A DNA stretch of 64,000 bases from Nemertoderma westbladi. Taxonomy: Eukaryota; Animalia; Xenacoelomorpha. The stretch lies in the NCBI GenBank assembly GCA_032718475.1, contig JAUCBJ010003147.1, positions 3,627 through 67,626 of the forward strand, read 5' to 3'. The notes beneath the pieces were generated by a model. It ran no database searches. It was not told where the DNA came from and saw nothing but the letters and a program-made list of their open reading frames with translations. The translations under genes and the position numbers were made by a program. Within the stretch, counting starts at the first letter, position 1; every line of letters begins with the position of its first letter. Below are positions 3,421 to 33,422 of the stretch, piece after piece.

Positions 3421-3711
3421 TTGTCTGGTTGGACGAGAGGAACAACTGTTGGTGAAACGAATTCATATACCCCGGGTTGTCCTCATTTAGTCGATATCCG
3501 ACCCGTCGACCCCTCCTATAGATTTGGAATATTCGGTTCCCGTTTCTGATTGTGTCTACTATGATCGACTCACCCGCAGGTAACTTTACACTCTTACAGC
3601 CATTATTTTCATATGTTTCATTGAAAAGTGCTATAAATAGACAATCACAAAAACCTAACCAAAATTTACGAAATTATATTTCATCCTGATTATTTCCGTC
3701 CTGATTGTCGT

Positions 3712-3915
3712 ACATTGTCAGTGCATACATATATGTGTTACATTAAGCCGTCCTGGTAGAACATTGTCAGTATACATACATATATGTGTTACATTAAGCC
3801 GTCCTGGTAGAACATTGTCAGTGCATACATATATGTGTTACATTAAGCCGTCCTGGTAGAACATTGTCAGTATACATACATATATGTGTTACATTAAGCC
3901 GTCCTGGTAGAACAT
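3712..3915. repeat. 49/51-bp minisatellite, ~4 units
   Basis: ACATTGTCAGTGCATACATATATGTGTTACATTAAGCCGTCCTGGTAGA in tandem; same family as 16483-17005. Confidence 0.95.
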
Positions 3916-6900: not shown

Positions 6901-9900
6901 TTACTTACGACCAGTCAATAACACACTTTGTATGAACCCCGACCATTTAATAACGTACTCAGTTTTACTCACGACCAGTCAATAACACACTTAGTATATG
7001 AGCTCCGACCATTTAATAACGTACTCAGTTTTACTCACGACCAGTCAATAACACACTTAGTATGAACCCTGACCATTTTATTACGTACTGAGTTTTACTC
7101 ACGACCAGTCAATAACACACTTAGTATGAACCCCGACCATTTAATAACGTACTCAGTTTTACTCACGACCAGTCAATAACACACTTAGTATATGAGCTCC
7201 GACCATTTAATAAAGTACTCAGTTTTACTCACGACCAGTCAATAACACACTTAGTATATGAGCTCCTACCATTTAATAACGTACTCAGTTTTACTCACGA
7301 CCAGTCAATAACACACTTAGTATGAACCCCGACCATTTAATAACGTACTCAGTTTTACTCACGACCAGTCAATAACACACTTAGTATATGAGCTCCGACC
7401 ATTTAATAACGTACTCGGTTTTACTCACGACCAGTCAATAACACACTTATTATATGAGCTCCGACCATTTAATAACGTACTCAGTTTTACTCACGACCAG
7501 TCAATAACACACTTAGTATATGAGCTCCGACCGTTTAATAACGTACTCAGTTTTACTCACGACCAGTCAATAACACACTTAGTATATGAGCTCCGACCAT
7601 TTAATAACGTACTCAGTTTTACTCACGACCAGTCAATAACACACTTAGTATATGAGCTCAGACAATTTCATAACGTACTCAGTTTTACTCACGACCAGTC
7701 AATAACACACTTATTATATGAGCTCCGACAATTTAATAACGTACTCAGTTTTACTCACGACCTGTCAATAAATGACTTAGTATGAACCCCGACCATTTAA
7801 TTACGTACTCAGTTTTACTCACGACCAGTCAATAACACACTTAGTATGAACCCCGACCATTTAATTACGTACTCGGTTTTACTCACGACCAGTCAATAAC
7901 ACACTTAGTATATGAGCTCCGACCATTTAATAACGTACTCAGTTTTACTCACGACCAGTCAATAACACACTTAGTATGAACCCCGACCATTTAATTACGT
8001 ACTCAGTTTTACTCACGACCAGTCAATAACACACTTAGTATGAATCCCGACCATTTCATTACGTACTCAGTTTTACTCACGATCAGTCAATAACACACTT
8101 AGTATGAACCCCGACCATTTAATTACCTACTCAGTTTTACTCACGACCAGTCAATAACACACTTAGTATGAACCCCGACCATTTAATTACGTACTCAGTT
8201 TTACTCACATCCAGTCAATAACACACTTAGTATGAACCCCGACCATTTAATTACGTACTCAGTTTTACTCACATCCAGTCAATAACACACTTAGTATGAA
8301 CCCCGACCATTTCATTACGTAATCGGTTTTACTCACGACCAGTCAATAACACACTTAGTATGAACCCCGACCATTTAATAACGTACTCAGTTTTACTCAC
8401 GACCAGTCAATAACACACTTAGTATATGAGCTCTGACCTTTTAATAACGTACTCAGTTTTACTCACGACCAGTCAATAACACACTTAGTATATGAGCTCC
8501 GACCATTTAATTACGTACTTAGTTTTACTCGCGACCAGTCAATAACACACTTAGTATATGAGCTCCGACCATTTAATAACGGACTCAGTTTTACTCACGA
8601 CCAGTCAATAACACACTTAGTATGAACCCCGACAATTTAATTACGTACTCAGTTTTACTCACGACCAGTCAATAACACACTTTGTATGAACCCCGACCAT
8701 TTAATTACGTACTCAGTTTTACTCACGTCCAGTAAATAACACACTTAGTATGAACCCCGATCATTTCATTACGTACTCAGTTTTACTCACGACCAGTCAA
8801 TAACACACTTAGTATATGAGCTCCGAACATTTAATAACGTACTCAGTTTTACTCACGACCAGTCAATAACACACTTAGTATATGAGCCCCGACCATTTAA
8901 TAACGTACTCAGTTTTACTCACGACCAGTCAATAACACACTTAGTATATGAGCTCCGACCATTTAATAACGTACTCAGTTTTACTCACGACCAGTCAATA
9001 ACACACTTAGTATATGAGCTCCGACCATTTAATAACGTACTCAGTTTTACTCACGACCAGTCAATAACACACTTAGTATGAACCCCGACAATTTAATTAC
9101 GTACTCAGTTTTACTCACGACCAGTCAATAACACACTTTGTATGAACTCCGACCATTTAATTACGTACTCAGTTTTACTCACGACCAGTCAATAACACAC
9201 TTAGTATGAACCCCGACCATTTCATTACGTACTTAGTTTTACTCACCACCAGTCAATAACACACTTAGTATATGAGCTCCGACCATTTAATAACGTACTC
9301 AGTTTTACTCACCACCAGTCAATAACACACTTAGTATATGAGCTCCGACCATTTAATAACGTACTCAGTTTTACTCACGACCAGTCAATAACACACTTAG
9401 TATGAACCCCGACCATTTAATTACGTACTGAGTTTTACTCACGACCAGTCAATAACACACTTAGTATGAACCCCGACCATTTAATAACGTACTCAGTTTT
9501 ACTCACGACCAGTCAATAACACACTTAGTATATGAGCTCCGACCATTTAATAACGTACTCAGTTTTACTCACGACCAGTCAATAACACACTTAGTATGAA
9601 CCCCGACCATTTAATTACGTACTCAGTTTTACTCACGACCAGTCAATAACACACTTAGTATGAACCCCGACCATTTAATTACGTACTGAGTTTTACTCAC
9701 GACCAGTCAATAACACACTTAGTATGAACCCCGACCATTTAATAACGTACTCAGTTTTACTCACGACCAGTCAATAACACACTTAGTATATGAGCTCCGA
9801 CCATTTAATAGCGTACTCAGTTTTACTCACGACCAGTCAATAACACACTTAGTATATGAGCTCCGACCATTTAATAACGTACTTAGTTTTACTCACGACC

Positions 9901-12900
9901 AGTCAATAACACACTTAGTATATGAGCTCCGACCATTTAATAACGTACTCAGTTTTACTCACGACCAGTCAATAACACACTTAGTATATGAGCTCCGGCC
10001 ATTTAATAACGTACTCAGTTTTACTCACGACCAGTCAATAACACACTTAGTATGAACCCCGAACATTTAATTACGTACTCAGGTTTACTCACGACCAGTC
10101 AATAACACACTTAGTATATGAGCTCCGAACATTTAATAACGTACTCAGTTTTACTCACGACCAGTCAATAACACACTTAGTATATGAGCTCCGACCATTT
10201 AATAACGTACTCAGTTTTACTCACGACCAGTCAATAACACACTTAGTATATGAGCTCCGACCATTTAATAACGTACTCAGTTTTACTCACGACCAGTCAA
10301 TAACACACTTAGTATATGAGCTCCGACCATTTAATAACGTACTCAGTTTTACTCACGACCAGTCAATAACACACTTAGTATATGAGCTCCGACCATTTAA
10401 TAACGTACTCAGTTTTACTCACCACCAGTCAATAACACACTTAGTATATGAGCTCAGACCATTTAATAACGTACTCAGTTTTACTCACGACCAGTCAATA
10501 ACACACTTAGTATATGAGCTCCGACCATTTAATAACGTACTCAGTTTTACTCACCACCAGTCAATAACACACTTAGTATATGAGCTCCGACCATTTAATA
10601 ACGTACTCAGTTTTACTCACGACCAGTCAATAACACACTTAGTATATGAGCTCCGACCATTTAATAACGTACTCAGTTTTACTCACGACCAGTCAATAAC
10701 ACACTTAGTATATGAGCTCCGACCATTTAATAACGTACTCAGTTTTACTCACGACCAGTCAATAACACACTTAGTATATGAGCTCCGACCATTTAATAAC
10801 GTACTCAGTTTTACTCACGACCAGTCAATAACACACTTAGTATATGAGTTCCGACCATTTAATAACGTACTCAGTTTTACTCACCACCAGTCAATAACAC
10901 ACTTAGTATATGAACTCCGACCATTTAATAACGTACTCAGTTTTACTCACGACCAGTCAATAACACACTTAGTATATGAGCTCCGACCATTTAATAACGT
11001 ACTCAGTTTTACTCACGACCAGTCAATAACACACTTAGTATATGAGCTCCGACCATTTAATAACGTACTCAGTTTTACTCACGACCAGTCAATAACACAC
11101 TTAGTATATGAGCTCCGACCATTTAATAACGTACTCAGTTTTACTCACGACCAGTCAATAACACACTTAGTATATGAGCTCCGACCATTTAATAACGTAC
11201 TCAGTTTTACTCACGACCAGTCAATAACACACTTAGTATGAACCCCGATCATTTAATTACGTACTCAGTTTTACTCACGACCAGTCAATAACACACTTAG
11301 TATATGAGCTCCGAACATTTAATAACGTACTCAGTTTTACTCACGACCAGTCAATAACACACTTTGTATGAACCCCGACCATTTAATAACGTACTCAGTT
11401 TTACTCACGACCAGTCAATAACACACTTAGTATATGAGCTCCGACCATTTAATAACGTACTCAGTTTTACTCACGACCAGTCAATAACACACTTAGTATG
11501 AACCCCGACCATTTAATTACGTACTGAGTTTTACTCACGACCAGTCAATAACACACTTAGTATGAACCCCGACCATTTAATAACGTACTCAGTTTTACTC
11601 ACGACCTGTCAATAACACACTTAGTATATGAGCTCCGACCATTTAATAACGTACTCAGTTTTACTCACGACCAGTCAATAACACACTTACTATATGAGCT
11701 CCGACCATTTTATAACGTACTCAGTTTTACTCACGACCAGTCAATAACACACTTAGTATATGAGCTCCGACCATTTAATAACGTACTCAGTTTTACTCAC
11801 GACCAGTCAATAACACACTTAGTATGAACCCCGACCATTTAATTACGTACTCAGTTTTACTCACGACCAGTCAATAACACACTTAGTATATGAGCTCCGA
11901 ACATTTAATAACGTACTCAGTTTTACTCACGACCAGTCAATAACACACTTTGTATGAACCCCGACCATTTAATAACGTACTCAGTTTTACTCACGACCAG
12001 TCAATAACACACTTAGTATATGAGCTCCGACCATTTAATAACGTACTCAGTTTTACTCACGACCAGTCAATAACACACTTAGTATGAACCCCGATCATTT
12101 AATTACGTACTCAGTTTTACTCACGACCAGTCAATAACACACTTAGTATATGAGCTCCGAACATTTAATAACGTACTCAGTTTTACTCACGACCAGTCAA
12201 TAACACACTTTGTATGAACCCCGACCATTTAATAACGTACTCAGTTTTACTCACGACCAGTCAATAACACACTTAGTATATGAGCTCCGACCATTTAATA
12301 ACGTACTCAGTTTTACTCACGACCAGTCAATAACACACTTAGTATGAACCCCGACCATTTAATTACGTACTGAGTTTTACTCACGACCAGTCAATAACAC
12401 ACTTAGTATGAACCCCGACCATTTAATAACGTACTCAGTTTTACTCACGACCTGTCAATAACACACTTAGTATATGAGCTCCGACCATTTAATAACGTAC
12501 TCAGTTTTACTCACGACCAGTCAATAACACACTTACTATATGAGCTCCGACCATTTTATAACGTACTCAGTTTTACTCACGACCAGTCAATAACACACTT
12601 AGTATATGAGCTCCGACCATTTAATAACGTACTCAGTTTTACTCACGACCAGTCAATAACACACTTAGTATGAACCCCGACCATTTAATTACGTACTCAG
12701 TTTTACTCACGACCAGTCAATAACACACTTAGTATATGAGCTCCGAACATTTAATAACGTACTCAGTTTTACTCACGACCAGTCAATAACACACTTTGTA
12801 TGAACCCCGACCATTTAATAACGTACTCAGTTTTACTCACGACCAGTCAATAACACACTTAGTATATGAGCTCCGACCATTTAATAACGTACTCAGTTTT

Positions 12901-15452
12901 ACTCACGACCAGTCAATAACACACTTAGTATATGAGCTCCGACAATTTCATAACGTACTCAGTTTTACTCACGACCAGTCAATAACACACTCAGTATATG
13001 AGCTCCGACCATTTAATAACGTACTCAGTTTTACTCACGACCTGTCAATAAATCACTTAGTATGAACCCCGACCATTTAATTACGTACTCAGTTTTACTC
13101 ACGACCAGTCAATAACACACTTAGTATGAACCCCGACCATTTAATTACGTACTCAGTTTTACTCACGACCAGTCAATAACACACTTAGTATGAACCCCGA
13201 CCATTTAATTACGTACTCAGTTTTACTCACGACCAGTCAATAACACACTTAGTATGAACCCCGACCATTTAATTACGTACTCAGTTTTACTCACGATCAG
13301 TCAATAACACACTTAGTATGAACCCCGACCATTTAATTACGTACTCAGTTTTACTCACGATCTGTCAATAACACACTTAGTATGAACCCCGACCATTTAA
13401 TAACGTACTCAGTTTTACTCACGACCAGTCAATAACACACTTAGTATATGAGCTCCGACCTTTTAATAACGTACTCAGTTTTACTCACGACCAGTCAATA
13501 ACACACTTAGTATATGAGCTCCGACCATTTAATAACGTACTTAGTTTTACTCACGACCAGTCAATAACACACTTAGTATATGAGCTGCGACCATTTAATA
13601 ACGGACTCAGTTTTACTCACGACCAGTCAATAACACACTTAGTATATGAGCTGCGACCATTTAATAACGGACTCAGTTTTACTCACGACCAGTCAATAAC
13701 ACACTTAGTATATGAGCTCCGACCTTTTAATAACGTACTCAGTTTTACTCACGACCAGTCAATAACACACTTAGTATATGAGCTCCGACCATTTAATAAC
13801 GTACTTAGTTTTACTCACGACCAGTCAATAACACACTTAGTATATGAGCTGCGACCATTTAATAACGGACTCAGTTTTACTCACGACCAGTCAATAACAC
13901 ACTTAGTATGAACCCCGACAATTTAATTACGTACTCAGTTTTACTCACGACCAGTCAATAACACACTTTGTATGAACCCCGACCATTTAATTACGTACTC
14001 AGTTTTACTCACGTCCAGTAAATAACACACTTAGTATGAACCCCGACCATTTCATTACGTACTCAGTTTTACTCACGACCAGTCAATAACACACTTAGTA
14101 TATGAGCTCCGACCATTTAATAACGTACTCAGTTTTACTCACGACCAGTCAATAACACACTTAGTATATGAGCTCCGACCATTTAATAACGTACTCAGTT
14201 TTACTCACGACCAGTCAATAACACACTTAGTATGAACCCCGACCATTTAATTACGTACTGAGTTTTACTCACGACCAGTCGATAACACACTTAGTATGAA
14301 CCCCGACCATTTAATAACGTACTCAGTTTTACTCACGACCTGTCAATAACACACTTAGTATATGAGCTCCGACCATTTAATTACGTACTCAGTTTTACTC
14401 ACGACCAGTCAATAACACACTTAGTATATGAGCTACGACCTTTTAATAACGTACTCAGTTTTACTCACGACCAGTCAATAACACACTTAGTATATGAGCT
14501 CCGACCATTTAATAACGTACTTAGTTTTACTCACGACCAGTCAATAACACACTTAGTATATGAGCTGCGACCATTTAATAACGGACTCAGTTTTACTCAC
14601 GACCAGTCAATAACACACTTAGTATGAACCCCGACAATTTAATTACGTACTCAGTTTTACTCACGACCAGTCAATAACACACTTTGTATGAACCCCGACC
14701 ATTTAATTACGTACTCAGTTTTACTCACGTCCAGTAAATAACACACTTAGTATGAACCCCGACCATTTCATTACGTACTCAGTTTTACTCACGACCAGTC
14801 AATAACACACTTAGTATATGAGCTCCGACCATTTAATAACGTACTCAGTTTTACTCACGACCAGTCAATAACACACTTAGTATATGAGCTCCGACCATTT
14901 AATAACGTACTCAGTTTTACTCACGACCAGTCAATAACACACTTAGTATGAACCCCGACCATTTAATTACGTACTCAGTTTTACTCAGGACCAGTCAATA
15001 ACACACTTAGTATGAACCCCGACCATTTAATAACGTACTCAGTTTTACTTACGACCAGTCAATAACACACTTAGTATATGAGCCCCGACCATTTAATAAC
15101 GTACTCAGTTTTACTCACGACCAGTCAATAACACACTTAGTATATGAGCTCCGACCATTTAATAACGTACTCAGTTTTACTCACGACCAGTCAATAACAC
15201 ACTTAGTATATGAGCTCCGACCATTTAATAACGTACTCAGTTTTACTCACGACCAGTCAATAACACACTTAGTATGAACCCCGACCATTTAATAACGTAC
15301 TCAGTTTTACTCACGACCAGTCAATAACACACTTAGTATATAAGCTCCGACCATTTAATAACGTACTCAGTTTTACTCACGACCAGTCAATAACACACTT
15401 AGTATATGAGCTCCGACAATTTCATAACGTACTCAGTTTTACTCACGACCAG
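3916..15452. repeat. 64/66-bp tandem satellite, array 2 (~175 units)
   Basis: Same A/B units as array 1. Ends at the same junction (CACGACCAG|CACCCCCACC) as array 1. Confidence 0.98.
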
Positions 15453-15945
15453 CACCCCCACCCTCATCCCACCTCTTTACCATGTGCCCCACCGCCCTCC
15501 GGCCCCCCACAACCCGCCTCCAACCCCACACCCATCCCCACCCCCCACCCCAACATAATTCCCACGCCCCCACCTCCACCCCTAACCCCACCCACAGGCC
15601 CCACCAGAACGCCTAACACTCATCCCCAGACCCCTACCGCACCCCCATCCCCAACCCAAACCCTAACCTCCCACCTCACACCCCCACCCCCATACCCATC
15701 CAGCACCCCAAACCTCATCCCACCTCTTTACCATGTGCCCTACCTCCCTCCGGCCCCCCACAACCCGCCTCCAACCCCACACACCATCCCCACCCCAACC
15801 CCCATCCCAACACAACCCCCACATCCACCCCCAACCCCACCCCCACCAAAACCCCCACCACCCATCCCCACACCCCTACCGCACCCCCAACCCAAACCCT
15901 AACGCCCCACCTCCCACCCCCACACCTATTCAGCACCCCCACCCT
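15453..15945. repeat. C-rich low-complexity block, second copy
   Basis: Homologous to 3036-3420 and somewhat longer. Confidence 0.9.
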
Positions 15946-16482
15946 GATCTCGTGGATGTGCTGACGGCTACTTCGACTGTATTTGGTGCACCTTAAATAA
16001 CATTTCTGTATTTATTTAATTTGTAAATTATTGAGGTTGTCCAATTATTTATGTTACCTTGTGATAGTACTTTGTGCTAAATGACCTAAAACCATCTTAT
16101 GCACGGTCTGGATCCAATCTCCAAATGCAATCACAGATAACCCTGTCCACCACTCTGTTGTTTAAAATCCTAACTATATGTTTTTACTCAATTTAAACTA
16201 ATCCATAAGCTAAATACTGACATTATGGCTATTTTGCAATTATATTTATTATTTAAAAATTGTTCTTAAAGTAATACTTTCGGAAATTTTGCTTTAATTT
16301 TGTTTTTATATTTGAATTTACTTTAATTGTTAATTTGTGTACTGTATTATTATTAAAATTTATTTTTAGGTCTACTTGCAATAGCTAAATGTGTTTTATC
16401 ATTAGTATAAGCAGTAGTTAACCTACCACTACCAGTATGAATATTTATTTACTTGTATTGGTATGTAATTTTGATATCGAAA

Positions 16483-17005
16483 ACATATATGTGTTACATT
16501 AAGACGTCCTGGTAGAACATTGTCAGTGCATACATATATGTGTTACATTAAGACGTCCTGGTAGAACATTGTCAGTGCATACATATATGTGTTACATTAA
16601 GACGTCCTGGTAGAACATTGTCAGTGCATACATATATGTTTTACATTAAGCCGTCCTGGTAGAACATTGTCAGTGCATACATATATGTGTTACATTAAGC
16701 CGTCCTGGTTGAACATTGTCAGTGCATACATATATGTTTTACATTAAGACGTCCTGGTAGAACATCGTCAGTGCATACATATATGTGTTACATTAAGACG
16801 TCCTGGTAGAACATTGTCAGTATACATACATATATGTGTTACATTAAGACGTCCTGGTAGAACATTGTCAGTGCATACATATATGTGTTACATTAAGCCG
16901 TCCTGGTAGAACATTGTCAGTGCATATATATATGTTTTATATTAAGACGTCCTGGTAGAACATTGTCAGTGCATACCATACATATATGTGTTACATTAAG
17001 ACGTC
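16483..17005. repeat. 49/51-bp minisatellite, ~10 units
   Basis: Tandem ACATTGTCAGTGCATACATATATGTGTTACATTAAGACGTCCTGGTAGA. Confidence 0.95.
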
Positions 17006-17260
17006 CACCCCACCCCACCCCACCCCACCCCACCCCACCCCACCCCACCCCACCCCACCCCACCCCACCCCACCCCACCCCACCCCACCCCACCCCACCC
17101 CACCCCACCCCACCCCACCCCACCCCACCCCACCCCACCCCACCCCACCCCACCCCACCCCACCCCACCCCACCCCCACCCCACCCCACCCCACCCCACC
17201 ACCCACCCCACCCCACCCCACACCCCCACCCCACCCCCCCCCCCCACCGCCACCCCCAAC
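17006..17260. repeat. (CCCCA)n microsatellite; (TGGGG)n on minus strand, G-quadruplex-capable
   Basis: More than 30 perfect CCCCA units, degenerating toward 17260. Confidence 0.97.
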
Positions 17261-17358: not shown

Positions 17359-17976
17359 CTACACCACAGCAAGTAGAGCATGGCGGATAATGCTATAGAG
17401 TTTGGCATGGCCAAGGTCACTCAGGTGTATACCATCGGAGTGCAGCAAGGTTCCTCCCTGCACCCGATGGCATAATGCACCTTGCATTTTAATTAGAACG
17501 CCGTTCTGGGCGTGGTTGAACCACGCCGCCATCCGCATATTTGTGGCGACACGACGTGAATCATAATCGGGGTCCACAGACACACCTTTAGGGCGCATTA
17601 ACCTGGGGAACATTTGTGTCCATAACACACAGGAAGCACCATTGGAAGAATATTCCTGAATCATTGACTTTAATTTAGAGACAACGTAATCTGTGTCTCT
17701 CACACACAGATCGTTGCTTCCAAATAGAAGTACAATGAAACAAGGTTTATTGTCCCAATTGGCCATCACCTCCTGCGCGTTATGGGTGTCAAATATTCTC
17801 CCTGACCGCAGCTGAAAGGTAACTTTGGCAACTGTTGGACAGATACCAAAGTTACGATTGTGGCCGCGGTTGTTGTGGTCAAGGTACCGAAAGAGGTGGT
17901 CTGGGTGTGAAGACCCAACGATTATAATTTCATGTACATGATTGACAGTACAAATAGCTTGGACCGGTAGTGGCAT
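17359..17976 (-). CDS. SGNH/GDSL-type hydrolase (esterase), intronless, 205 aa
   Basis: Block I IIIVGSSH, block II SG, block III LLFGSNDL and block V HSDGIHLSDLG are in the correct order and spacing. First ATG is at 17976 (the ORF track starts at an upstream TTG). Confidence 0.88.
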   Translation of the reverse strand: MPLPVQAICTVNHVHEIIIVGSSHPDHLFRYLDHNNRGHNRNFGICPTVAKVTFQLRSGRIFDTHNAQEVMANWDNKPCFIVLLFGSNDLCVRDTDYVVSKLKSMIQEYSSNGASCVLWTQMFPRLMRPKGVSVDPDYDSRRVATNMRMAAWFNHAQNGVLIKMQGALCHRVQGGTLLHSDGIHLSDLGHAKLYSIIRHALLAVV

Positions 17977-20742: not shown

Positions 20743-20991
20743 ATGCCAAAACGAAAGCAATCTTTTGTTTGCTCGTACTGCCAAGGTCGCTGTGGCAAGA
20801 AGCGACACAACAAGGCAACCTGCCCTATGCGCATCGAACATCTGCGGAAAGGGATAGATGCCGCCAACATGGACGCCGGTAGAGAGTTGGAAATAGGTGG
20901 CGTTGGTGACCAACCCATCGGTATTCATGTAGAGATTCCGGGAAGCGCCGATGTCCATCAGACCGGCCGTTTACACGCGGTGGAAGCCAAT
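20743..20991 (+). CDS. Coding exon 1: MPKRKQSFV-CSYCQGRCGKKRHNKATC zinc knuckle
   Basis: Acceptor TTTTTTATAG at 20734, ATG at 20743, donor GTAAGT at 20992; 83 codons. Confidence 0.85.
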
Positions 20992-23900
20992 GTAAGTTTT
21001 ATTTAGGACTAACTTATATTAAGTATTATTCTAAACAGAGGCATGCTTAATACACTGTTTGTACGGCCTGCATACTGTATCTGGGAAACACACCATTATC
21101 TGCACACTATTTAACCCACTTATCTATACCAGGAGATCTGCCATCGTGAGTTACCCTCCTTGATAACCAATCTTGATTTGACTTTTAATCTTACCCACCA
21201 TTGTAACTCTATCTATATTGTCTTTTTACCAGCCATTGTCTACCTCCCTGTTTACCTTCCACCTTATTTGGTAAAGCTCCATTATAAATGTATATGTGCT
21301 GTGGGTCGGAGCTTTAAGGAGAAGGACTTCGATCCAATGTAACATAATAAATTGTGTAATGTTGTAGTATTATGTTGTGCTAATATACTAATTACTATAA
21401 ATTCTACGTACTCCTTATTGTTGCTGTGAAGTGCGGTCATTTCTTTAGTATAGTTTCGTTATAATATGTTATTGTTATTCTTATTTATAATTACAGAATA
21501 ACTATAAGTACCGGTATACTTATGGAACTATAACACCCCCCCTCCCTCACTTAAACGGAATATAAATTTTCTAAAATTAAAAAATACCTACCTATCTCTT
21601 TTTGTTGTTTGAAGTCAGTATAAGTATATCTCTCCGTGTCATTATTTTAAACTGCTACTTTCTAGGTGGAGTTGGATCGCGAGACTCCGGAGGTAGCGGT
21701 CGGACGCGAGACTCCCACTTCTCCATCCTACGCGGACGCGTTGAGATCGCCTCCACGGCCAAGTATCTGTTCTCCGCTGCAACCAACCCCGGTAGGACGC
21801 GGGACTCTCGACGTCACGGTGGGACGCCAGACTCCCCCTACATCTCCATCATACGCCGACGCGTTGAGATCGCCTCCACGGCGACGTACTACCCGTCCGC
21901 CAACACCACCAACGCCGGTTAGTTTAACATATATAAATATGTGGACCTACTTTGTCATTTTATATTTTGTTTCGGTGGTTTTCTAATACAATTACTGCAT
22001 AAAACGATTAGCTGAAGCAATATATACAGTATATACCAGTATATACCTCCCAACACTCTACCCAGAGTCTCTCTTGACTCTTCACCCCGACCCCTCCCCC
22101 ATTAATTCATTGAATCGTACATATTTGTTACATTTTTCTTCTATTTTTTCTCTTCTATCTATTATTTTTAAATTATTTAGGTCGCCAATTCAAAGAGTTG
22201 GTTCCGCCAGGTCGCGGACGATCTCAACCTGGATGTGGTCGACATACCAAACCACCCACTGGCGCAGTTATCTGCGGTTTCAACGGCTGCGGGCTGGGGG
22301 ATATCAGCCACCTATCTGAAACAACACGTGGCCGACTTCATGTTGCTGAGAACGGCCAAGTATTCGCGGCAGTGGCTCTTCCGTACGGGAGGGCCGCAAT
22401 CGTTCGCCGCCTACTTACTTTCATTGGCGTCGGATGATTGCCAGGTTAACGACATCAACCTGGAGGCCATAAGAGATATGGAGGAGATGGAGATCACGGT
22501 CCATCGGGCGCAGCACCGAAACGCGCCAAGTTGTTACTGCGCCCCCCCAAGGAGACGAGGTGGTGCCATCCATATCGGTGTGGACGGCGACCGATACGTC
22601 GCGTTTGTTTCGAGGTCTATCTCGACCCAGTCCGGCCGCGTGACCGAGTCGGAACCGATGGTTAGTTAATACTCTCCCTATAATGTTTCACTGTGTTTTT
22701 CAATAATGTTTGTGTTTATGTCACTGTTACATTAATGTTTGTATAAAAAGTATGTAACAAATACCATGAAATGTCTACAAAATAATTATATTTCCCGAAT
22801 AGACGATGTTACACGGCTATTAATTAATTGAGACGTCGTCATTATTTTTATAGCTTCATATTAATTCCAAATTATTGGTACCGACAATTAAAAACTCCAT
22901 TTCGTTAATAAATATACATTTAGAATTCCTTTAAATACATTTAATATACATGGAATATTAAAATGGAATATGGAATATTATAATACACATTGAATGTACC
23001 TTTAATTTCTTATTAAGTAAATATCAATTATCTCAAACTCCATATTTATAATTAATTGTTTAGGTTCTCCAGGAAGCTATTAAACCTATGGAGGACGTAC
23101 ATAATATCTCAGTCGCAACGGAGTTATTTACTACCGTTGTAGAATCTGATCTGCCCCGTAGATCCTATACGGTGTCCGGCCGTTTAGCTTCCAAACCTCC
23201 GACTGTAAGTGAATCTATATTATATATGTAATATCATATATTCATATATTATTTATTTAATTTGTTAAGAAATAATTTCTTAAATTGTCAGAGGTTAGCT
23301 AAAATGTCACCCTATTTATAATTTATATGCACTTCGACATTTTACAATAATTCCACACTATAATAATATATTTATATAATATTGATTATCGTTATTTTAG
23401 AGTTTTTTTTTGAATTCCCACTTGAACCACGGCGTTTATTTTGAATTGATGAGGAAAGTAACTTTATAATTTGTATTAATATATTAACCTACAGGAGCTG
23501 CATTTAGTTGATAATATTATACGATATAATTTAACCGATATAATTAATTATTTAATTGTTATTTCCACAGAGAACGTCGTCACGTAAAGGGAAGAAGAAA
23601 TTATCAGCTCTGCAAGACGCAACTGATATCAGAGGTGACGCTATGTCTGAATGTTCAGATGTAGGTAGTATCGGCTCTGTCGGTAGTATCGGTTCTATTC
23701 GTAGTGTCGGTACTGCCGGTAGTGTTGGTTCTGTTAGCAGTATGGCGTCTAACGAGTCAACCCGTAGGAGGAACGCCGCTCAAAAGTCCGGCTGTCCGTC
23801 TTCCCGTCCAGAAATCGTAAGTTTACTCAATAAATTATGTAATTAATTAATTATACAGAAACCTAATTAAATGATATTTTTTGTATAATGTATTTAATTA

Positions 23901-26900
23901 ATGGTAACTAACAGAACTCTTGTAAATATTTAATAATTTTTGTACAAATTAAATGACTGGAATACAATTGCATTTCGGTGCTTTAAAACTGAAAATATAA
24001 AATATTTTGTTTTAACTAATTCATATTTTCCCATTTAAATAAAGTTTATTTTATATAATTATTAATATTCCATACGAATGGTAACTTAATTATTTGTTTA
24101 AATTTTAAAGACTATTTTATTCCATAATTTTTAATTTATAGCGTTTATTTTAAAATATTTAATTTAACTAACAGTTAATTATATAATCAACATCAATTAT
24201 TATTTTTATTTTAGTTCACTAAACCAACTAAACGAAAGGGAGGCCAAACGTGTTCCTATTGTCAAGGACGTTGCGGGAAGAGGTCGCATAAGAAACAAAC
24301 CTGTATTATGAGACTCTTCCATGAGAGTAAGGATATATGGGTGGCAAATATGGATGCGGGCATTCTTCTGGAAGTAGTACAGGACGCTGAGATGGACGAA
24401 ATGGCCGCAGAGCCAGAGAGTACTGCTGATATGGACGCGGAATTCTTACAGGATATCGAACACGCGGAATTCTTACAGGATATCGAGATGTTCGATATCG
24501 AGGCCGCCGAGAGTGGCGCTGTCCAGACCGGCCGCGTATCTGATCCAGAACCGATGGTTAGTTAACTTAAATATATCCTAAGCTATATTTACTAAATAAC
24601 CCATAATATTGTCTATATTTCGGCGCACACGTACTGCATCCTATATACACGTTTGTACCATGTACAAATGTAGTGCGTGGATGTACACATGTAGTACATG
24701 GATGTACACATGTAGTACATGGATGTACACATGTACACATGCAGAATACACATGTGGTACATGGATGTACACTAGAGTTGCAACAGAGACCTGTTTTTCT
24801 TAATCCCGGTAAACCAGAGCCCTACCCAGAGAATTATTTTGAAAAATACCGGAGACCAGAGCCAGAGATCAGAGACTTGGCTTATTTTTGTTCTTCCATT
24901 TTGATTAGTCCCATAAAGCACAAACAGGTACATATGGATGGACTGAAACTATTTTTATATGGTTGAATTACAGTAACTCCAACCCATATGAACCCTTACC
25001 AATTGAAATAAAATAAGCGCACGTACAGTTTACTTAATTAATATTAATTTGGTTATTTGTTTATTAATTCGTTCTTATTTTGTCATTGTTAATAATATGT
25101 TACATAAATTTGTTTTGCGCCATAGGTACCGGTACTTTGTTAAGTAAAGGCACTTATTTTACAATTGTTCAAATCATATACATTTCAATAGACTATAAAC
25201 TTAGTAAATTACGAATACAGTGCACAGGTATGGTACTCTACTCGCCCCATATGCAAGCCTCGTTACGCTCGTTCTCTTCATTTGGTCTTCATATTATCTA
25301 TCCTACAACAAGTTGAACGGAGATCAGCCCTTTCTTTCACTTTTAAACATTATGGGTGCTCAAATTAAGCACCTTTATCCTTAAATAAGAACGACCTTTA
25401 GGTGCTAATTTAATTTAAAATTAAACGCACCTTAAATTAATAAATGTAAATATAATTATTATCGGTACATTTAGTTTGAGTCAGATTTAGAGTTAGATTA
25501 AAAACAGTGTAAAAGTGAATGTATAATTTTGTTGAAGCTGAGTATTAAAAATAAAAATTAAAGAAATTATTAATTGTAAAAAATTTGTGAAAAATAATCT
25601 TCATTTCACATTTTGTGTTGTACAGGATCTATTTTTAAATATCTATTTTTAATTTGTAAAATCACTGATCTCTGGGTAAAATGTCTGTTTTCAATACCCG
25701 GGAACCAGAGACCCATCCAGAGACTAAAAAATTACCCGGAGAATCCAGAGATCAGTGACAGGTCTCTGTTTCAACTCAATGTACACATGTGGTACATGGA
25801 TGTACACATGTGGTACATGGATGTACACATGTGGTACATGGATGTACACATGTGGTACATGGATGTACACATGTGGTACATGGATGTACACATGTGGTAC
25901 ATGGATGTACACATGTGGTACATGGATGTACACATGTGTTACATGGATGTACACATGCGGTACATGGATGTACACATGTAGTACATGGATGTACACATGT
26001 ACCGCACCCTATATACACGATTGTACCATGTACAAATGTAGTACGTGGATGTACACATGTAGTACATGGATGTACACATGTAGTACATGGATGTACACAT
26101 GTACACATGCAGAATACACATGTGGTACATGGATGTACACATGTGGTACATGGATGTACACATGTGGTACATGGATGTACACATGTGGTACATGGATGTA
26201 CACATGTGGTACATGGATGTACACATGTGGTACATGGATGTACACATGTGGTACATGGATGTACACATGTGGTACATGGATGTACACATGTGGTACATGG
26301 ATGTACACATGTGGTACATGGATGTACACCTGTGGTACATGGATGTATACATGTGGTACATGGATGTACACATGTGGTACATGGATGTACACATGTGGTA
26401 CATGGATGTACACATGTGGTACATGGATGTACACATGTGGTACATGGATGTACACATGTGGTACATGGATGTACACATGTGGTACATGGATGTACACATG
26501 TGGTACATGGTTGTACACATGTGGTACATGGTTGTACACATGTGGTACATGGATGTACACATGTGGTACATGGATGTACACATGTGGTACATGGATGTAC
26601 ACATGTGGTACATGATGTACACATGTGGTACATGGATGTACACATGTGGTACATAGATGTACACATGTGGTACATGGATGTACGCATGTGGTACATGGAT
26701 GTACACATGTGGTACATGGATGTACACATGTGGTACATGGATGTACACATGTGGTACATGGATGTACACATGTGGTACATGGATGTACACATGTGGTACA
26801 TGGATGTACACATGTGGTACATGGATGTACACATGTGGTACATGGATGTACACATGTGGTACATGGATGTACACATGTGGTACATGGATGTACACATGTG

Positions 26901-29900
26901 GTACATGGATGTACACATGTGGTACATGGATGTACACATGTGGTACATGGATGTACACATATGGTACATGGATGTACACATGTGGTACATGGATGGTACA
27001 TGGGTGTACACATGTAGTGCATGGATGTACACATGTAGTGCATGGATGTACACATGTAGTGCATGGATGTACACATGTAGTGCATGGATGTACACATGTA
27101 GTGCATGGATGTACACATGTAGTGCATGGATGTACACATGTAGTGCATGGATGTACACATGTAGTGCATGGATGTACACATGTAGTGCATGGATGTACAC
27201 ATGTAGTGCATGGATGTACACATGTAGTGCATGGATGTACACATGTAGTGCATGGATGTACACATGTAGTGCATGGATGTACACATGTAGTGCATGGATG
27301 TACACATGTAGTGCATGGATTTACACATGTAGTTCATGGATTTACACATGTAGTTCATGGATTTACACATGTAGTTCATGGATGTACACATGTAGTTCAT
27401 GGATGTACACATGTAGTTCATGGATGTACACATGTAGTGCATGGATGTACACATGTAGTGCATGGATGTACACATGTAGTGCATGGATGTACACATGTAG
27501 TGCATGGATGTACACATGTAGTGCATGGATGTACACATGTAGTGCATGGATGTACACATGTAGTGCATGGATGTACACATGTAGTGCATGGATGTACACA
27601 TGTAGTGCATGGATGTACACATGTAGTGCATGGATGTACACATGTAGTGCATGGATGTACACATGTAGTACACTGGATGTACACATGTAGTACACTGGAT
27701 GTACACATGTAGTACACTGGATGTACACATGTAGTACACTGGATGTACACATGTAGTACACTGGATGTACACATGTAGTACACGTACACATGTAGTACAG
27801 TACACGTACACATGGAGTACAGTACACGTACACATGGAGTACAGTACACGTACACATGGAGTACAGTACACGTACACATGGAGTACAGTACACGTACACA
27901 TGGAGTACAGTACACGTACACATGGAGTACACTACACGTACACATGTAGTTCACTACACGTACACATGTAGTACACTGGATGTACACATGTAGTACACTG
28001 GATGTACACATGTAGTACACTGGATGTACACATGTAGTACACTGGATGTACACATGTAGTACACTGGAAGTACACATGTAGTACACTGGATGTACACATG
28101 TAGTACACTGGATGTACACATGTAGTACACTGGATGTACACATGTAGTACACTGGATGTACACATGTAGTACACTGGATGTACACATGTAGTACATGGGT
28201 GTACACATGTAGTACATGGGTGTACACATGTAGTACATGGGTGTACACATGTAGTACATGGATGCACACATGTAGTACATGGATGCACACATGTAGTACA
28301 TGGATGCACACATGTAGTACATGGATTTACACATGTAGTACAGTAATACACGTACACATGGAGTACAGTAATACACGTACACATGGAGTACACTACACGT
28401 ACACATGTAGTACACTACACGTACACATGTAGTACACTGGATGTACACATGTAGTACACTGGATGTACACATGTAGTACACTGGATGTACACATGTAGTA
28501 CACTACACGTACACATGTAGTACACTACACGTACACATGTAGTACAGTACACGTACACATGTAGTACAGTACACGTACACATGTAGTACAGTACACGTAC
28601 ACATGGAGTACAGTACACGTACACATGGAGTACAGTACACGTACACATGGAGTACAATAATACACGTACACATGGAGTACAGTAATACACGTACACATGG
28701 AGTACACTACACGTACACATGGAGTACACTACACGTACACATGTAGTACACTACACGTACACATGTAGTACACTGGATGTACACATGTAGTACACTGGAT
28801 GTACACATGTAGTACACTGGATGTACACATGTACAGTACACGTACACATGGAGTACAGTACACGTACACATGGAGTACAGTACACGTACACATGGAGTAC
28901 AGTACACGTACACATGGAGTACAGTACACGTACACATGGAGTACAGTACACGTACACATGGAGTACAGTACACGTACACATGGAGTACACTACACGTACA
29001 CATGTAGTACACTACACGTACACATGTAGTACACTACACGTACACATGTAGTACACTACACGTACACATGTAGTACAGTACACGTACACATGTAGTACAG
29101 TACACGTACACATGTAGTACAGTACACGTACACATGGAGTACAGTACACGTACACATGGAGTACAGTAATACACGTACACATGGAGTACAGTAATACACG
29201 TACACATGGAGTACACTACACGTACACATGTAGTACACTGGATGTACACATGTAGTACATGGGTGTACACATGTAGTACATGGATGCACACATGTAGTAC
29301 ATGGATGCACACATGTAGTACATGGATGCACACATGTAGTACATGGATTTACACATGTAGTACATGGATTTACACATGTAGTACATGGATTTACACATGT
29401 AGTACATGGATTTACACATGTAGTACATGGATTTACACATGTAGTACATGGATTTACACATGTAGTACATGGATTTACACATGTAGTACATGGATTTACA
29501 CATGTAGTATTTCCGGTAGCTATCATAGTATAATTAATTGTAATTAACACTTAATTTTTTTTCCTTTTAGGATACGGATACAAACACTCCAATTCGTTTA
29601 GATTCATTAAGAACACGTATCCTTTTGGGACCCACCTGCATGCTCCCTAGTGTCTCACCATTAGTCGTCCCTTCATTCTCCCCTAGAATGGAGACTCCTG
29701 CCTTTTCACCATTGGCTAGATGTACTCCCACGTTTTCCCCACTCGTGGATGTTTCTCCTGGTGGCTACTCTGATCAGTCGCAGTCGACGCCGGGCATTCT
29801 ATCACCGTTTTTGAGGATGTCTGCAGTAGAGACGCCCCCTCGCTCACAATCCCGTCGACCAAAGCCACTGAACATTCGTCCACGGCGGGAGCGAGGGGGT

Positions 29901-30735
29901 CGTATAATCGGGGTGAGTTGATATAATTTTGTAGTAAAGCTTTTGGTTGAGTCGAATGAATTAAAAGTATTTTGTATAGTTGTTTGTTTTTCTATGGTTT
30001 TAGTGAATGTTGATTAAGATGCTTATTGATATATATAACGAAATTGTTTCTATTTCAATTTAATGCTTTCTAAGTCTGTTATTTATTTATTTATACTGAA
30101 ATTATTGTATTTTTCTGTATATTCTATAAATAATAATCACCCAATAATTACAGTTAATGAAACACAGCTAATTCAATAAGCATATTTCTATAGTCAATGA
30201 AACACACAGATTGGTGATTGCAGTATAGCTGTTTTTGTTGTGGCATTATTCGTTATTTCAGAGGTACTTACAGTTTGATTTATGTTTATTTTAGGATCCA
30301 ACTGGTTCAGGAACCTGTACCCCTTTCTCCACCCCAACTATGAGTCCTCGCACAGATTCTCCCGTGTTTCGGTTTGACGATGACTCAATTCGCCGGCTTA
30401 ATTCTAAGTCCGGGAAGGATACTCCTCCCCGATTTCTATCACGGCGACTATCTCCCTATGTTGTTCTATCACGTAAGGATATTGTATCAAGTCCAACACC
30501 GGATGTTGGACTAAACGCAGTACCATCTCCACCCGACGTGTTACCCAGCACAGAAATTGTACCTGGAGTGTTACCAACCGCGCCTCGTGCAACACGACAC
30601 ACACCCAGTGCGGCACCACAATCTAGTTCTAGAACACCACACACATCGACCTCAACACCCCGCCCGTCGGGTGCAACAACACAGCCTTCAAATGCAAATC
30701 CGCAGCCTTCAACATCGGGCGGGGTCCCGTCAATG
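20743..30735 (+). CDS. Spliced gene, at least 831 aa and 3'-incomplete: join(20743..20991,21666..21917,22181..22660,23064..23204,[23401..23457],23571..23816,24215..24556,29571..29912,30295..30735); two zinc knuckles, pseudo-OTU domain, S/P/T-rich regions
   Basis: GC-richer open exons sit in AT-rich introns. Each has a pyrimidine-rich YAG acceptor and a GTAAGT/GTTAGT/GTGAGT donor. Every coding exon length is a multiple of 3 and the joined frame has no stop. Confidence 0.85.
21666..21917 (+). CDS. Coding exon 2: Pro/Ser-rich, duplicated TSPSYADALRSPPR motif
   Basis: Acceptor TTTCTAG, donor GTTAGT at 21918; 84 codons. Confidence 0.82.
22181..22660 (+). CDS. Coding exon 3: OTU-like cysteine protease fold lacking catalytic residues
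   Basis: Acceptor TATTTAG, donor GTTAGT; 160 codons. LNLDVVDIPNHPLAQLSAVS...LKQHVADFM...FAAYL..L..D...DINLEAI...ITV...IHIG..GDRY follows the OTU pattern. Confidence 0.75.
23064..23204 (+). CDS. Coding exon 4 (47 codons, VLQEAIKP...SGRLASKPPT)
   Basis: Acceptor TGTTTAG, donor GTAAGT at 23205; open in phase 0. Confidence 0.8.
23401..23457 (+). CDS. Possible 19-codon mini-exon (SFFLNSHLNHGVYFELMRK)
   Basis: Acceptor TATTTTAG, weaker donor GTAACT; open in phase 0. Confidence 0.4.
23571..23816 (+). CDS. Coding exon 5: basic patch plus (V/I)GS tripeptide repeats
   Basis: Acceptor TTTCCACAG, donor GTAAGT at 23817; 82 codons. Confidence 0.82.
24215..24556 (+). CDS. Coding exon 6: second zinc knuckle CSYCQGRCGKRSHKKQTC plus acidic region
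   Basis: Acceptor TTTATTTTAG, donor GTTAGT at 24557; 114 codons; paralogous to coding exon 1. Confidence 0.85.
24629..24772. repeat. Start of the 21-bp intronic satellite, separated from the main array by a MITE
   Basis: GTACACATGTAGTACATGGAT units; this block recurs at ~25999-26140. Confidence 0.85.
24773..25778. mobile_element. hAT-like MITE, ~1.0 kb, with 8-bp TSD
   Basis: Left TIR TAGAGTTGCAACAGAGACCTGT; right end ACAGGTCTCTGTTTCAACTCA. ATGTACAC flanks both sides (24765-72, 25779-86). Multiple subterminal CCAGAG motifs at both ends; no transposase. Confidence 0.8.
25779..29508. repeat. 21/22-bp intronic minisatellite with sequential variant domains
   Basis: GTACACATGTGGTACATGGAT, then GTACACATGTAGTGCATGGAT, then 22-bp GTACACATGTAGTACACTGGAT / GTACACATGGAGTACAGTACAC, then TTACACATGTAGTACATGGAT. 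Confidence 0.98.
29571..29912 (+). CDS. Coding exon 7: S/T-P rich (repeated FSP motifs)
   Basis: Acceptor TTCCTTTTAG, donor GTGAGT at 29913; 114 codons. Confidence 0.83.
30295..30735 (+). CDS. Coding exon 8: S/P/T-rich, ends in an open donor with no in-phase downstream exon found
   Basis: Acceptor TTTATTTTAG, donor GTGAGT at 30736; 147 codons. Confidence 0.83.
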
Positions 30736-30767: not shown

Positions 30768-31836
30768 GTGAATCAATTGTCACGTAATTATGTAAGTGAA
30801 TCAATTCCCATGTAATTATGTAAGTGAATCAATTGCCACGTTATTATGTAAGTGAATCAATTGTCGCGCAATTATGTAAGTGATTCAATTGTCGCGCAAT
30901 TATGTAAGTGAATCAATTGTCACGTAATTATGTGAGATAATGAATTGTCATGTAATTATGTTAGTGAATAAATTGTCATGTAATTATGTAAATGAATAAA
31001 TTGTCGCGCAATTATGTAAGTGAATCAATTGTCACGTAATTATGTAAATGAATCAATTGTCATGTAATTATGTAAGTGAATCAATTGTCACGTAATTATG
31101 TGAGATAATGAATTGTCATGTAATTATGTTAGTGAATAAATTGTCATGTAATTATGTAAATGAATCAATTGTCGCGCAATTATGTAAGTGAATCAATTGT
31201 CGCGCAATTATGTAAGTGCATTTGTCACGTTATTATGTAAGTGAAACAGTGAATCAATTGTCACGTAATTATGTAAGTGAATCAATTGTTACGTTATGTA
31301 AGTGAATCAATTGTCACGCAATTATGTAAGTGAATCAATTGTCACGTAATTATGTAAGTGAATCAATTGTCACGTTATAATGTAAGTGAATCAATTGTCA
31401 CGTAATTATGTGAGATAATGAATTGTCATGTAATTATGTTAGTGAATAAATTGTCATGTAATTATGTAAATGAATCAATTGTCGCGCAATTATGTAAGTG
31501 AATCAATTGTCGCGCAATTATGTAAGTGCATTTGTCACGTTATTATGTAAGTGAAACAGTGAATCAATTGTCACGTAATTATGTAAGTGAATCAATTGTT
31601 ACGTTATGTAAGTGAATCAATTGTCACGCAATTATGTAAGTGAATCAATTGTCACGTAATTATGTAAGTGAATCAATTGTCACGTAATTATGTAAGTGAA
31701 TCAATTGTCACGTTATTATGTAAGTGAATCAATTGTCACGTTATAATGTAAGTGAATCAATTGTCGCGCAATTATGTAAGTGAATCAATTGTCACGTAAT
31801 TATGTGAGATAATGAATTGTCATGTAATTATGTAAG
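30768..31836. repeat. 28-bp minisatellite (~38 units) with a 310-bp higher-order duplication
   Basis: Unit GTGAATCAATTGTCACGTAATTATGTAA; the variant GTGAAACAGTGAATC occurs at 31241 and 31551. Confidence 0.96.
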
Positions 31837-33422
31837 ACAATCAAGTCTCACACATAGATCTCGTTTTACGTAGAATTTGTAATACCCAAAGACCTTTTGG
31901 AGGAAAGTTATTTATTGGCTGTGGAGATCACAAACAGCTAGAGCCAGTTGAGGGTAGAGTTGTCTGGCTTAGTACACACTTTTTAACAACCTTTAAAGTA
32001 GCTGTTTGTAGACATTTTGTCCGTAGTGCCAACGATCAAGAATTACAGCTTGTTATAAATATCTTGCGGTCAACAAATCCATCTCCAAATGAAATTGATC
32101 AAATGATTAATATCCTAAAGAGGCGTTGCAATTTTGTTGATACCTGGGAAGATGTCCCAGATGATGTGTTAAAGGTTGTAGGCACTAGGGCTGGTGAGCA
32201 GGAGGTATTAAAGAAATATCTGGACCGGCACCGAAATGAGTACGGAACTGTAATTATTGATAGTATTGATCAGGTCAATAACGGTAATCCAGCGGAGGAG
32301 CAATCTTGGAAAGAAACGCAAGCTACAAACATTATTACCTCAATAACAAAGTCTTGTCGTGAACCAAGACAATTGGTGTTATTTCTTAATCAGATTCTCC
32401 GATTTACATTTAATCGTTATTCTGTGCAACCACAATTTTCAAATGGTCAATTACTCTTTGTTACAAAGGTACCCACTGATAGAACAGATAGATTACATGG
32501 GGCTATTGTCCCTAAAGGTTGCCGCCGTGTCAATTCAGAGGTTGCACAAACCTGGCCTATCGTTAAACTAGAGCAGCGTAAAATGCCCCCTCCTACTACT
32601 GTTGGTTATGGTAGGAATACTATCATGGGGAGGCGAATACAATATCCTGTACGTTATTTTGGAGCGAGCACTATTCATGGTGTTCAAGGTCAAGGTACAC
32701 CTTCTATAGCAACCCAGATAACTATGGACAAACAGAGTACATATAAAATTTGGCTTAAAACCCAAGTAACAACTTTAATCTCAAGAGTATATTTCCTTGA
32801 CCAATTTACGTTTGTTGGGCCCACGGATGAAACTTTTAATTGTGTTAGGGTTTTAGCTAATAGAAAATCTCCAAATCAAGAGTATGTAGATCAGTTACTG
32901 CATAGTCTCAATATTCTTGATGGGCCACCACAGGAGCCAATAGCACTTGCTGACCATCCTTTCTTGCCATACTATATCGACATTCCTTCATCCCATACGG
33001 GATTTGTATATATGTTGATTAGCGTCAGATTTCCTAATGTTGTTACTTATATAGGGCAAACTGAGGAACTGAAAGCTCGGTTAAATGCTCACCAGAATAA
33101 GACAGGGTCTGAATTCACAAGAAATCCAGCCTACCATCCCTGGGCGCTTTATGCATTTGTAAGTGGCTTTCCTGGTGAAGCAAAGAGTGCACTCAATACT
33201 GATTACCGTAAGGAATTTGAGACTCAATGGCACCATGATACTGATACCAACAGAAGTGGTGGTAATACAACTCATAGTAGAGAATATATCTATAACATTG
33301 GGATTGAGATTGTACGTCAGTATAACACTGATCATTTATATCATGATGAAAATGAAGATCCTCAGAAATTTGAATTGATAATGGTTCAATGTCAACGTAT
33401 AAATGTTATTGCCAATGAATAA
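31836..33422 (+). CDS. 5'-truncated PIF1-family (SF1B) helicase fused to an SLX1-like GIY-YIG endonuclease; 528-aa stop-to-stop frame
   Basis: The frame is open upstream of the ORF-track start: HIDLVLRRICNTQRPFGGKLFIGCGDHKQLEPV (motif III), HFVRSAND (IV), RRIQYPVRYFGASTIHGVQGQ (V, ~32631), QVTTLISRV (VI, ~32763). From 33000: GFVYMLIS..TYIGQT..LKARLNAH..GSEFT..PWAL..VSGF..FETQW. Walker A/B absent. Confidence 0.88.
   Translation, partial: DNQVSHIDLVLRRICNTQRPFGGKLFIGCGDHKQLEPVEGRVVWLSTHFLTTFKVAVCRHFVRSANDQELQLVINILRSTNPSPNEIDQMINILKRRCNFVDTWEDVPDDVLKVVGTRAGEQEVLKKYLDRHRNEYGTVIIDSIDQVNNGNPAEEQSWKETQATNIITSITKSCREPRQLVLFLNQILRFTFNRYSVQPQFSNGQLLFVTKVPTDRTDRLHGAIVPKGCRRVNSEVAQTWPIVKLEQRKMPPPTTVGYGRNTIMGRRIQYPVRYFGASTIHGVQGQGTPSIATQITMDKQSTYKIWLKTQVTTLISRVYFLDQFTFVGPTDETFNCVRVLANRKSPNQEYVDQLLHSLNILDGPPQEPIALADHPFLPYYIDIPSSHTGFVYMLISVRFPNVVTYIGQTEELKARLNAHQNKTGSEFTRNPAYHPWALYAFVSGFPGEAKSALNTDYRKEFETQWHHDTDTNRSGGNTTHSREYIYNIGIEIVRQYNTDHLYHDENEDPQKFELIMVQCQRINVIANE

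Follow-up and report, generated by a model that had tools for sequence, protein, structure and literature searches.

Eight phase-0 exons beside a helicase–nuclease remnant in Nemertoderma westbladi: probable 5′ part of a Helitron-like gene

Anatomy of the locus

We analysed 64,000 nucleotides of the Nemertoderma westbladi assembly GCA_032718475.1 (contig JAUCBJ010003147.1, positions 3,627–67,626 of the forward strand; this whole 64-kb stretch is called the window, and positions are counted from its first letter). Eight exons lie there on the same strand as an intact remnant of a helicase–nuclease gene, and the two are separated by a 1.1-kb satellite (Table 1). Exon block and remnant are single copy within the window. 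We read the exons as the intron-split 5′ part of a single long Helitron-like rolling-circle transposon gene whose middle is missing here, and put the odds of this reading at roughly two in three.

Table 1. Features of the exon block, the remnant and the repeats between them
Feature	Position	Strand	Description
Exon 1, coding part	20743..20991	+	249 nt from ATG; basic N-terminus and CxxCxxxCxxxxHxxxxC zinc-knuckle-like motif
GWCCGGCYG copy 1	20961..20969	+	exon 1
Exon 2	21666..21917	+	252 nt; S/T/P-rich linker, internal 120-nt-period duplication
Exon 3	22181..22660	+	480 nt; OTU-fold domain (predicted inactive) and shared 11-codon tail
GWCCGGCYG copy 2	22630..22638	+	exon 3
Exon 4	23064..23204	+	141 nt; short, with shared tail motif
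GWCCGGCYG copy 3	23174..23182	+	exon 4
57-nt phase-0 exon candidate	23401..23457	+	weak: 33% GC, GTAACT donor
Exon 5	23571..23816	+	246 nt; basic, low-complexity, rich in S/G; carries the shared tail motif
GWCCGGCYG copy 4	23786..23794	+	exon 5
Exon 6	24215..24556	+	342 nt; second zinc knuckle, acidic stretch, tail shared with exon 3
GWCCGGCYG copy 5	24526..24534	+	exon 6
21–22-bp satellite in intron 6	24660..29509		interrupted by terminal-inverted-repeat (TIR) element
~1-kb non-coding element, like a miniature inverted-repeat transposable element	24775–25777		20-bp TIRs, 95% complementary; sits within the 21-bp satellite (intron 6)
Exon 7	29571..29912	+	342 nt; S/P-rich, without motif
Exon 8	30295..30735	+	441 nt; S/T/P-rich, without motif; followed by GTGAGT donor
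28-bp satellite after exon 8	30768..31851		last bases overlap remnant start (microhomologous junction)
Helicase–nuclease remnant	31845..33422	+	intact, 525 codons; C-terminal half of PIF1-like helicase and GIY-YIG nuclease

An earlier note, made from the letters of this DNA, had described eight exons with canonical splice sites, all in phase 0 and together free of stops. All eight are present at the sizes it gave. The seven complete introns are all GT–AG and phase 0 at their predicted splice sites, and frame 0 is open through every exon, yielding 831 stop-free codons; it is the sole open frame in seven of them, and exon 2 is open in frame 2 too. The exons are GC-rich islands (47–64% GC), six short introns have 16–33% GC and the satellite-filled intron 6 has 39%. 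A score blind to reading frame, combining our own splice-consensus weights with the step in GC content, ranks the eight donors 1–8 of 548 GT sites and places all eight acceptors in the top 12 of 403 AG sites. When the splice motif is scored alone, the donors rank 2–10 and the acceptors 1–45. Because the frame-blind ranking picks the same boundaries, the phase pattern is no artefact of fitting boundaries to the frame. The exon blocks with their GT–AG, phase-0 boundaries are confirmed as described; their splicing is predicted.

Substitutions within the duplicated parts point to coding function. Over 49 codons of the knuckle region common to exons 1 and 6, the proportion of non-synonymous differences (pN) is 0.30 against 0.82 for synonymous ones (pS), and the internal repeat of exon 2 gives pN 0.08 and pS 0.29. 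By this measure the duplicated exon sequence is under purifying selection, as coding DNA would be.

The outer limits of the block are less sharply drawn. An acceptor at 20735 precedes the ATG of exon 1 (20743) by 8 nt, so a further exon probably lies upstream; that exon may be coding, and its intron would then be phase 1. We place the start at this ATG since P0040, a relative annotated as Styela clava XP_039257388.1, likewise begins about 10 residues ahead of its knuckle. At the other end, unspliced read-through from exon 8 reaches a stop at 30756, and a partner acceptor for the exon 8 donor is absent from the window. The 57-nt exon in Table 1 is the sole candidate that passes our filter and may not be the one that the earlier note had in mind.

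A shared exon tail and the uniform phase

Exons 1, 3, 4, 5 and 6 carry the motif G(A/T)CCGGC(C/T)G (GWCCGGCYG) exactly 31 nt 5′ of the donor, and these five copies are its only occurrences in the window on either strand. The motif was first spotted by inspecting donor-aligned exon ends; the randomisation scans all windows and subsets. Seven columns of the exon tails are invariant, against a maximum of three in 3000 frame-preserving randomisations. When exon 6, whose last 33 nt are identical to those of exon 3 at 26 positions, is left out, seven columns remain invariant and the null maximum is five. A match to motif plus donor arose in none of 100 shuffles. Exons 1 and 6 are also paralogous over the knuckle (61% amino acid identity over 49 residues, E = 6e-19). 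The stretch common to these two exons follows its acceptor by 14 nt in exon 1 and by 15 nt in exon 6, offsets that would fit if only the internal copy had been selected for frame.

The simplest reading of these similarities is that introns 1, 3, 4, 5 and 6 probably descend from one intron that was copied along with the exon end upstream of it. With five introns from one ancestor, the uniform phase is largely non-independent. Taking a phase-0 frequency of 0.46, the human value summed from Table 2 of PMC3632108, which may not be that of the host, the chance that independent introns are all phase 0 is 0.004 for seven and 0.002 for eight; counting the five as one gives a chance of about 0.045 (0.46^4). 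The all-phase-0 pattern alone is unremarkable, and inheritance by duplication from a common ancestor is its likely explanation. The earlier proposal that symmetrical exons make this a freely modular protein survives in part: duplication is borne out by the paralogy of exons 1 and 6 and by the 3′ motif of five exons, whereas phase 0 seems to follow from common descent and is no evidence for free shuffling. The locus appears to preserve in nature the way in which successive introns come to share a phase, with one exon end, five copies and different exon bodies.

The motif itself may be constrained beyond its coding role. Three third-codon positions within it are invariant and its spacer to the donor is fixed at 22 nt. 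Because these synonymous positions are constant while the knuckle codons of exons 1 and 6 are saturated, a constraint at the level of nucleic acid is suggested, most simply a splicing enhancer. A motif so placed, with its distance and its synonymous sites kept, is a candidate for either a splicing enhancer or a protein-binding site. We rejected the idea that it is a subterminal repeat of the Helitron2 type, as no shared hairpin follows it.

Domains encoded by the exons

The CxxCxxxCxxxxHxxxxC motif is encoded twice, in exon 1 and in exon 6. The exon 1 sequence is similar to the start of P0040 (z = 5.0, a value reached by 1 of 500 shuffles), and in the ESM Atlas it gives no more than a lead to zinc-finger clusters, at 0.86, which is under 0.9. 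Exons 2, 7 and 8 hold 11–12 SP/TP pairs each. Pfam gave no significant match over the eight exons, and four NCBIfam queries returned nothing relevant.

Exon 3 encodes an OTU-fold domain that lacks the catalytic Cys and His and is predicted to be inactive. The ESM Atlas, where no family alignment was used, assigns 26 of 30 matches to the OTU set, with a score of 0.92 (recognition 2849). Exon 3 aligns colinearly with six OTU domains of the element's relatives and has about 15% identity to the OTU deubiquitinases DUBA/OTUD5, OTUD1 and OTUD3; at the catalytic positions Cys is replaced by Ala, His by Arg and Asp by His. An AlphaFold2 (AF2) model guided by the OTU alignment, and for that reason no independent evidence, reaches a confidence score (pLDDT) of 87, with Foldseek TM scores of 0.75–0.81 to DUBA, OTUD1 and OTUD3 (0.81 to DUBA). 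Single-sequence AF2 gives a pLDDT of 40 and no Foldseek match. In a block of 27 residues ahead of the OTU active site, exon 3 agrees with relatives such as P0022 and P0040 so well that only 6 of 199,497 windows score as high, the block having been chosen after the alignment was viewed. A PDB sequence search with exon 3 gave nothing meaningful, and homologous proteins numbered 0 of 505 and 0 of 34 candidates in longer- and near-length searches, which is weak evidence where eukaryotic genes are concerned. Its fold would place exon 3 with the OTU proteins, its residues outside those with a catalytic Cys-His(-Asp) set.

The remnant and its family

The remnant matches GIY-YIG (1.5e-8) and PIF1 (5e-4) in Pfam and covers positions 1874–2388 of 2412 in a profile of its family, beginning just past Walker B. 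The C-terminal half of a PIF1-type superfamily 1 helicase is present and intact, Walker A and B are gone, and fusion to Rep is seen in the relatives only. These relatives form 837 clusters at 50% identity. The long ones are proteins of 2,000–3,600 residues with Helitron_like_N, PIF1 and GIY-YIG; among 19 scanned at E<=0.01, Helitron_like_N was found in 14 (six over the cut-off) and GIY-YIG in 15. Exo_endo_phos, the domain of apurinic/apyrimidinic (AP) endonucleases, had no match in 23 relatives scanned. By a loose pattern, 23 of 39 long relatives have the Rep motif E(F/L/Y)Q...GN(K/L)PH.H. The family profile matches Helraiser (7lcc) over one stretch, in the helicase, where several stand-alone Pif1-type helicases score higher, and it matches SLX1 in the GIY-YIG part. 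The literature matches listed contained only one passing description of Rep–helicase (RepHel) combined with GIY-YIG, that of HelenSM92, in a search that left Repbase Reports, subscription journals and supplements outside its scope. Together, these data point to a large and under-described RepHel–GIY-YIG lineage.

We also note that long relatives share a conserved core of about 1,000 residues before Rep (CPxGC, WP..W..L and LYPEAxLFP), which has no Pfam match in our scans. In one relative (L001), a tandem repeat of about 87 bp, recognised by eye, lies at 3130–3543, right after the stop of its RepHel–GIY-YIG open reading frame (ORF).

The N-termini of the family are variable, with 56–684 residues before CPxGC in 32 proteins, and some members start with one or more knuckles, an S/P-rich linker and an OTU domain. 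An N-terminal OTU domain is found in 6 of 40 relatives of at least 2000 residues and additionally in P0030, five of the six having helped to build the profile used. Knuckles are found in 2 of 39, P0022 and P0040, in both cases upstream of the OTU domain; these two proteins run from knuckle(s) through OTU to Rep, PIF1 and GIY-YIG in one polypeptide. An [ST]GR peptide was found in the N-termini of only one of seven relatives. In P0032 and P0146, the OTU domain is C-terminal to the GIY-YIG region rather than N-terminal.

A tree was built from the helicase–nuclease part only (52 rows, of which 51 are relatives of at least 1600 residues with >380 aligned residues, drawn from 156 proteins). IQ-TREE places the remnant in a clade of 23 of the 52 rows (SH-aLRT 99) that holds five of the seven carriers of an N-terminal OTU domain, including both knuckle carriers.

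What is missing between the two halves can be estimated from the same relatives. The distance from the CPxGC motif of the core to the point equivalent to the junction is 1,530–1,961 residues in 31 relatives (median 1,727); the junction lacks about 1,700 codons of core, among them Rep and Walker A/B. A HUH Rep domain is absent from the window by the family profile, and tblastn of the 156 proteins matches the remnant region only. The junction resembles the 28-bp satellite unit at 12 of 16 bases and fits a microhomology deletion and an assembly collapse equally well. Direct splicing of exon 8 into the remnant was rejected, as in-frame acceptors in 31780–32100 score <=0.6 against 4.3–7.5 for the real ones. 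As assembled, this copy would be non-autonomous because more than 5 kb of core, Rep and Walker A/B is missing. The suggestion that the exons form the variable N-terminus of a much larger Rep–helicase–nuclease polyprotein is thus probably right for the element, given the architecture of P0022 and P0040, and fails for the copy at hand, where some 1,700 codons are gone and no adequate in-frame acceptor leads into the remnant.

Proposed element and alternatives

In the element that we propose, the intact gene would run knuckle, linker, predicted-inactive OTU, knuckle, S/P-rich linker, core, Rep, PIF1 and GIY-YIG, and would be expressed as one long spliced mRNA. Its disordered N-terminus, tolerant of in-frame duplication, would have been the setting for repeated copying of a segment made up of the 3′ end of an exon together with its intron; if only in-frame copies were retained, each new intron would inherit phase 0. 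The knuckles may bind nucleic acid, and the dead OTU domain would have no role beyond ubiquitin binding or scaffolding. Transposition would proceed by a rolling circle through Rep and PIF1, as described for Helitrons (PMC8788227, PMC6431247). From this copy, the core with Rep and Walker A/B, over 5 kb in all, would have been lost at the 28-bp satellite, by microhomology-mediated deletion or assembly collapse.

Several observations weigh against joining the two halves in this way. (i) No full-length copy of the element was seen, and metagenomes gave 0 loci with the remnant as query, so that the exons are tied to the remnant only indirectly. A scan of metagenomes with the family alignment yielded nine loci, none extending to the N-terminal region, and viral contigs gave 0 loci in scans. 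(ii) Most relatives are without knuckle and OTU, which prokaryote-style gene calls would miss if encoded in upstream exons. (iii) FastTree pairs the remnant with P0022 as sister (0.86) and IQ-TREE, in a quick search with no bootstrap, disagrees. (iv) By sequence alone, the match of exon 3 to the family OTU domains is not significant (rank 2 of 1002 and subsequently 54 by HMM; z<0 in pairwise comparison; P = 0.007 by hhalign). (v) Exons 2, 7 and 8 are without GWCCGGCYG. (vi) Helitron-like elements (HLEs) end in 5′-TC and in 3′-CTRR with a hairpin, or else in asymmetric TIRs, and make no target-site duplication; an inverted-repeat scan of the window, with only one copy at hand, gave nothing convincing as Helitron-type termini. 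(vii) Composition differs between the halves: the observed/expected CpG ratio is 1.11 in the exons and 0.54 in the remnant, GC at fourfold sites is 0.48 and 0.26, and C precedes G at codon junctions in 81 of 260 cases and 7 of 145 (p = 4e-11). From about 33400 to 54000, most bins have 21–28% GC and CpG ratios of 0.24–0.43, with a compositional boundary near the satellite junction.

The last of these points bears on a chimeric origin. The exons would then stem from one element, whether a member of the same family or some other transposon with an OTU domain, and the remnant from a different copy or family; recombination or mis-assembly at the satellite would have brought the two together. The strong contrast in CpG and third-position GC would be expected of such a chimera, as would a junction within a tandem array with microhomology, and OTU domains are also reported for Ginger1 transposases with introns (PMC2836005) and for HLE1 and HLE2 (PMC11417382). 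We nevertheless hold a chimera to be rather unlikely, because in the order of domains and in the helix preceding the OTU domain the exons agree with the remnant's own subclade, and a 5′-to-3′ CpG gradient inside one gene might give the same contrast. Gene-body methylation might produce a gradient of this kind.

It is also conceivable, though we judge it improbable, that the exons are a host or domesticated stand-alone gene, with a pseudo-OTU domain, zinc knuckles and disordered linkers, merely beside a Helitron fragment. Strong splice sites, an intact frame and purifying selection suit a host gene, and disordered proteins made of duplicated symmetric exons are described as common in host genes (PMC3632108). 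The architecture, however, fits transposon relatives, no terminal exon lies past the strong donor of exon 8, and the two protein searches found no homolog of exon 3, although this last point is weak evidence for eukaryotic genes.

A more speculative proposal, to which we give little credence, concerns how the N-terminus was built. GWCCGGCYG would be a putative DNA site bound or nicked by an element-encoded protein, with a breakpoint 31 nt from the donor that generates in-frame exon–intron units, and the N-terminus would be the product of repeated signal-guided copying in a widespread, little-described rolling-circle lineage with a C-terminal GIY-YIG domain. Finally, separate insertion of the introns, by introners or by an insertion mechanism that the motif guides to a set distance from GWCCGGCYG, is very improbable: it would account for the invariant 22-nt spacer and for synonymous positions held constant beside saturated codons, and introners exist, some of them Helitron-derived (PMC12130899), but by blastn the introns share no similarity beyond the exon 3/exon 6 donor, exonic homology reaches around the motif in exons 1, 3 and 6, no shared hairpin is evident in folded exon tails, and descent alone makes the absence of indels over seven codons plausible. 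Introners as described in PMC12130899 do not fit, the homology being exonic and the introns not mutually similar.

Comparison with known systems

Close counterparts to the proposed transposon gene are P0040 and P0022, which have knuckle(s), OTU, core, PIF1 and GIY-YIG and belong to the same helicase clade; their OTU domains retain the catalytic residues GDC..HY, which exon 3 lacks. The OTU deubiquitinases DUBA/OTUD5, OTUD1 and OTUD3 are likewise similar in modelled fold and differ in keeping the Cys, His and Asp.

Among described transposons, the element is most readily compared with HLE2 (Helentron/Helitron2). Its relatives have Rep (Helitron_like_N) and PIF1, OTU upstream of RepHel and an extra nuclease domain, and tandem repeats lie inside elements of both kinds (PMC4067079). 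The Helentrons of PMC4067079 (HLE2 subgroup b) have a C-terminal AP endonuclease where GIY-YIG is found here, which sets this element apart from them; the mite Helentron ORFs in that paper are described as intronless, whereas the N-terminus here is split into at least eight exons. HLE2 termini are described in PMC3627910. PMC11417382 describes OTU upstream of RepHel for HLE1 and HLE2 and the capture of GIY-YIG in HelenSM92 of Sphagnum, which is counted among the HLE2 elements and with which our comparison is by description only. By analogy, the element would work as Helitrons do, with Rep known from the relatives alone. A site-specific role of the Ssn type for the GIY-YIG domain (PMC11893778) would be an analogy only; the terms 'Helitron' and 'eukaryot' were not found in the main text of that paper.

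According to PMC3632108, duplicated symmetric exons are frequently the building blocks of disordered proteins. The proteins treated there resemble this one in their runs of same-phase exons, low complexity and internal duplication; they differ in that the exon bodies here are unrelated and only the last ~31 nt are common, and in that the gene apparently belongs to a transposon.

Other features of the window

An intronless ORF of 205 codons at 17362–17976 on the minus strand, divergent from the exon block, encodes an SGNH/GDSL hydrolase fold (Pfam Lipase_GDSL, 5e-6, in the stop-to-stop frame). It may be an accessory gene of the exon-block element or of another mobile element. The remaining features are repeats. 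A 15-kb array of a 64/66-bp satellite occupies 2–15452, and a CCCCA-rich block with 49-bp repeats occurs near 3087–3915 and again at about 15450–17257. Downstream of the remnant lie a 42-bp array at 43903–45841, an array based on 20–26 bp at 47100–50100, and arrays of a ~480-bp unit (about 94% identity) at 54670–58644 and 61353–62802.

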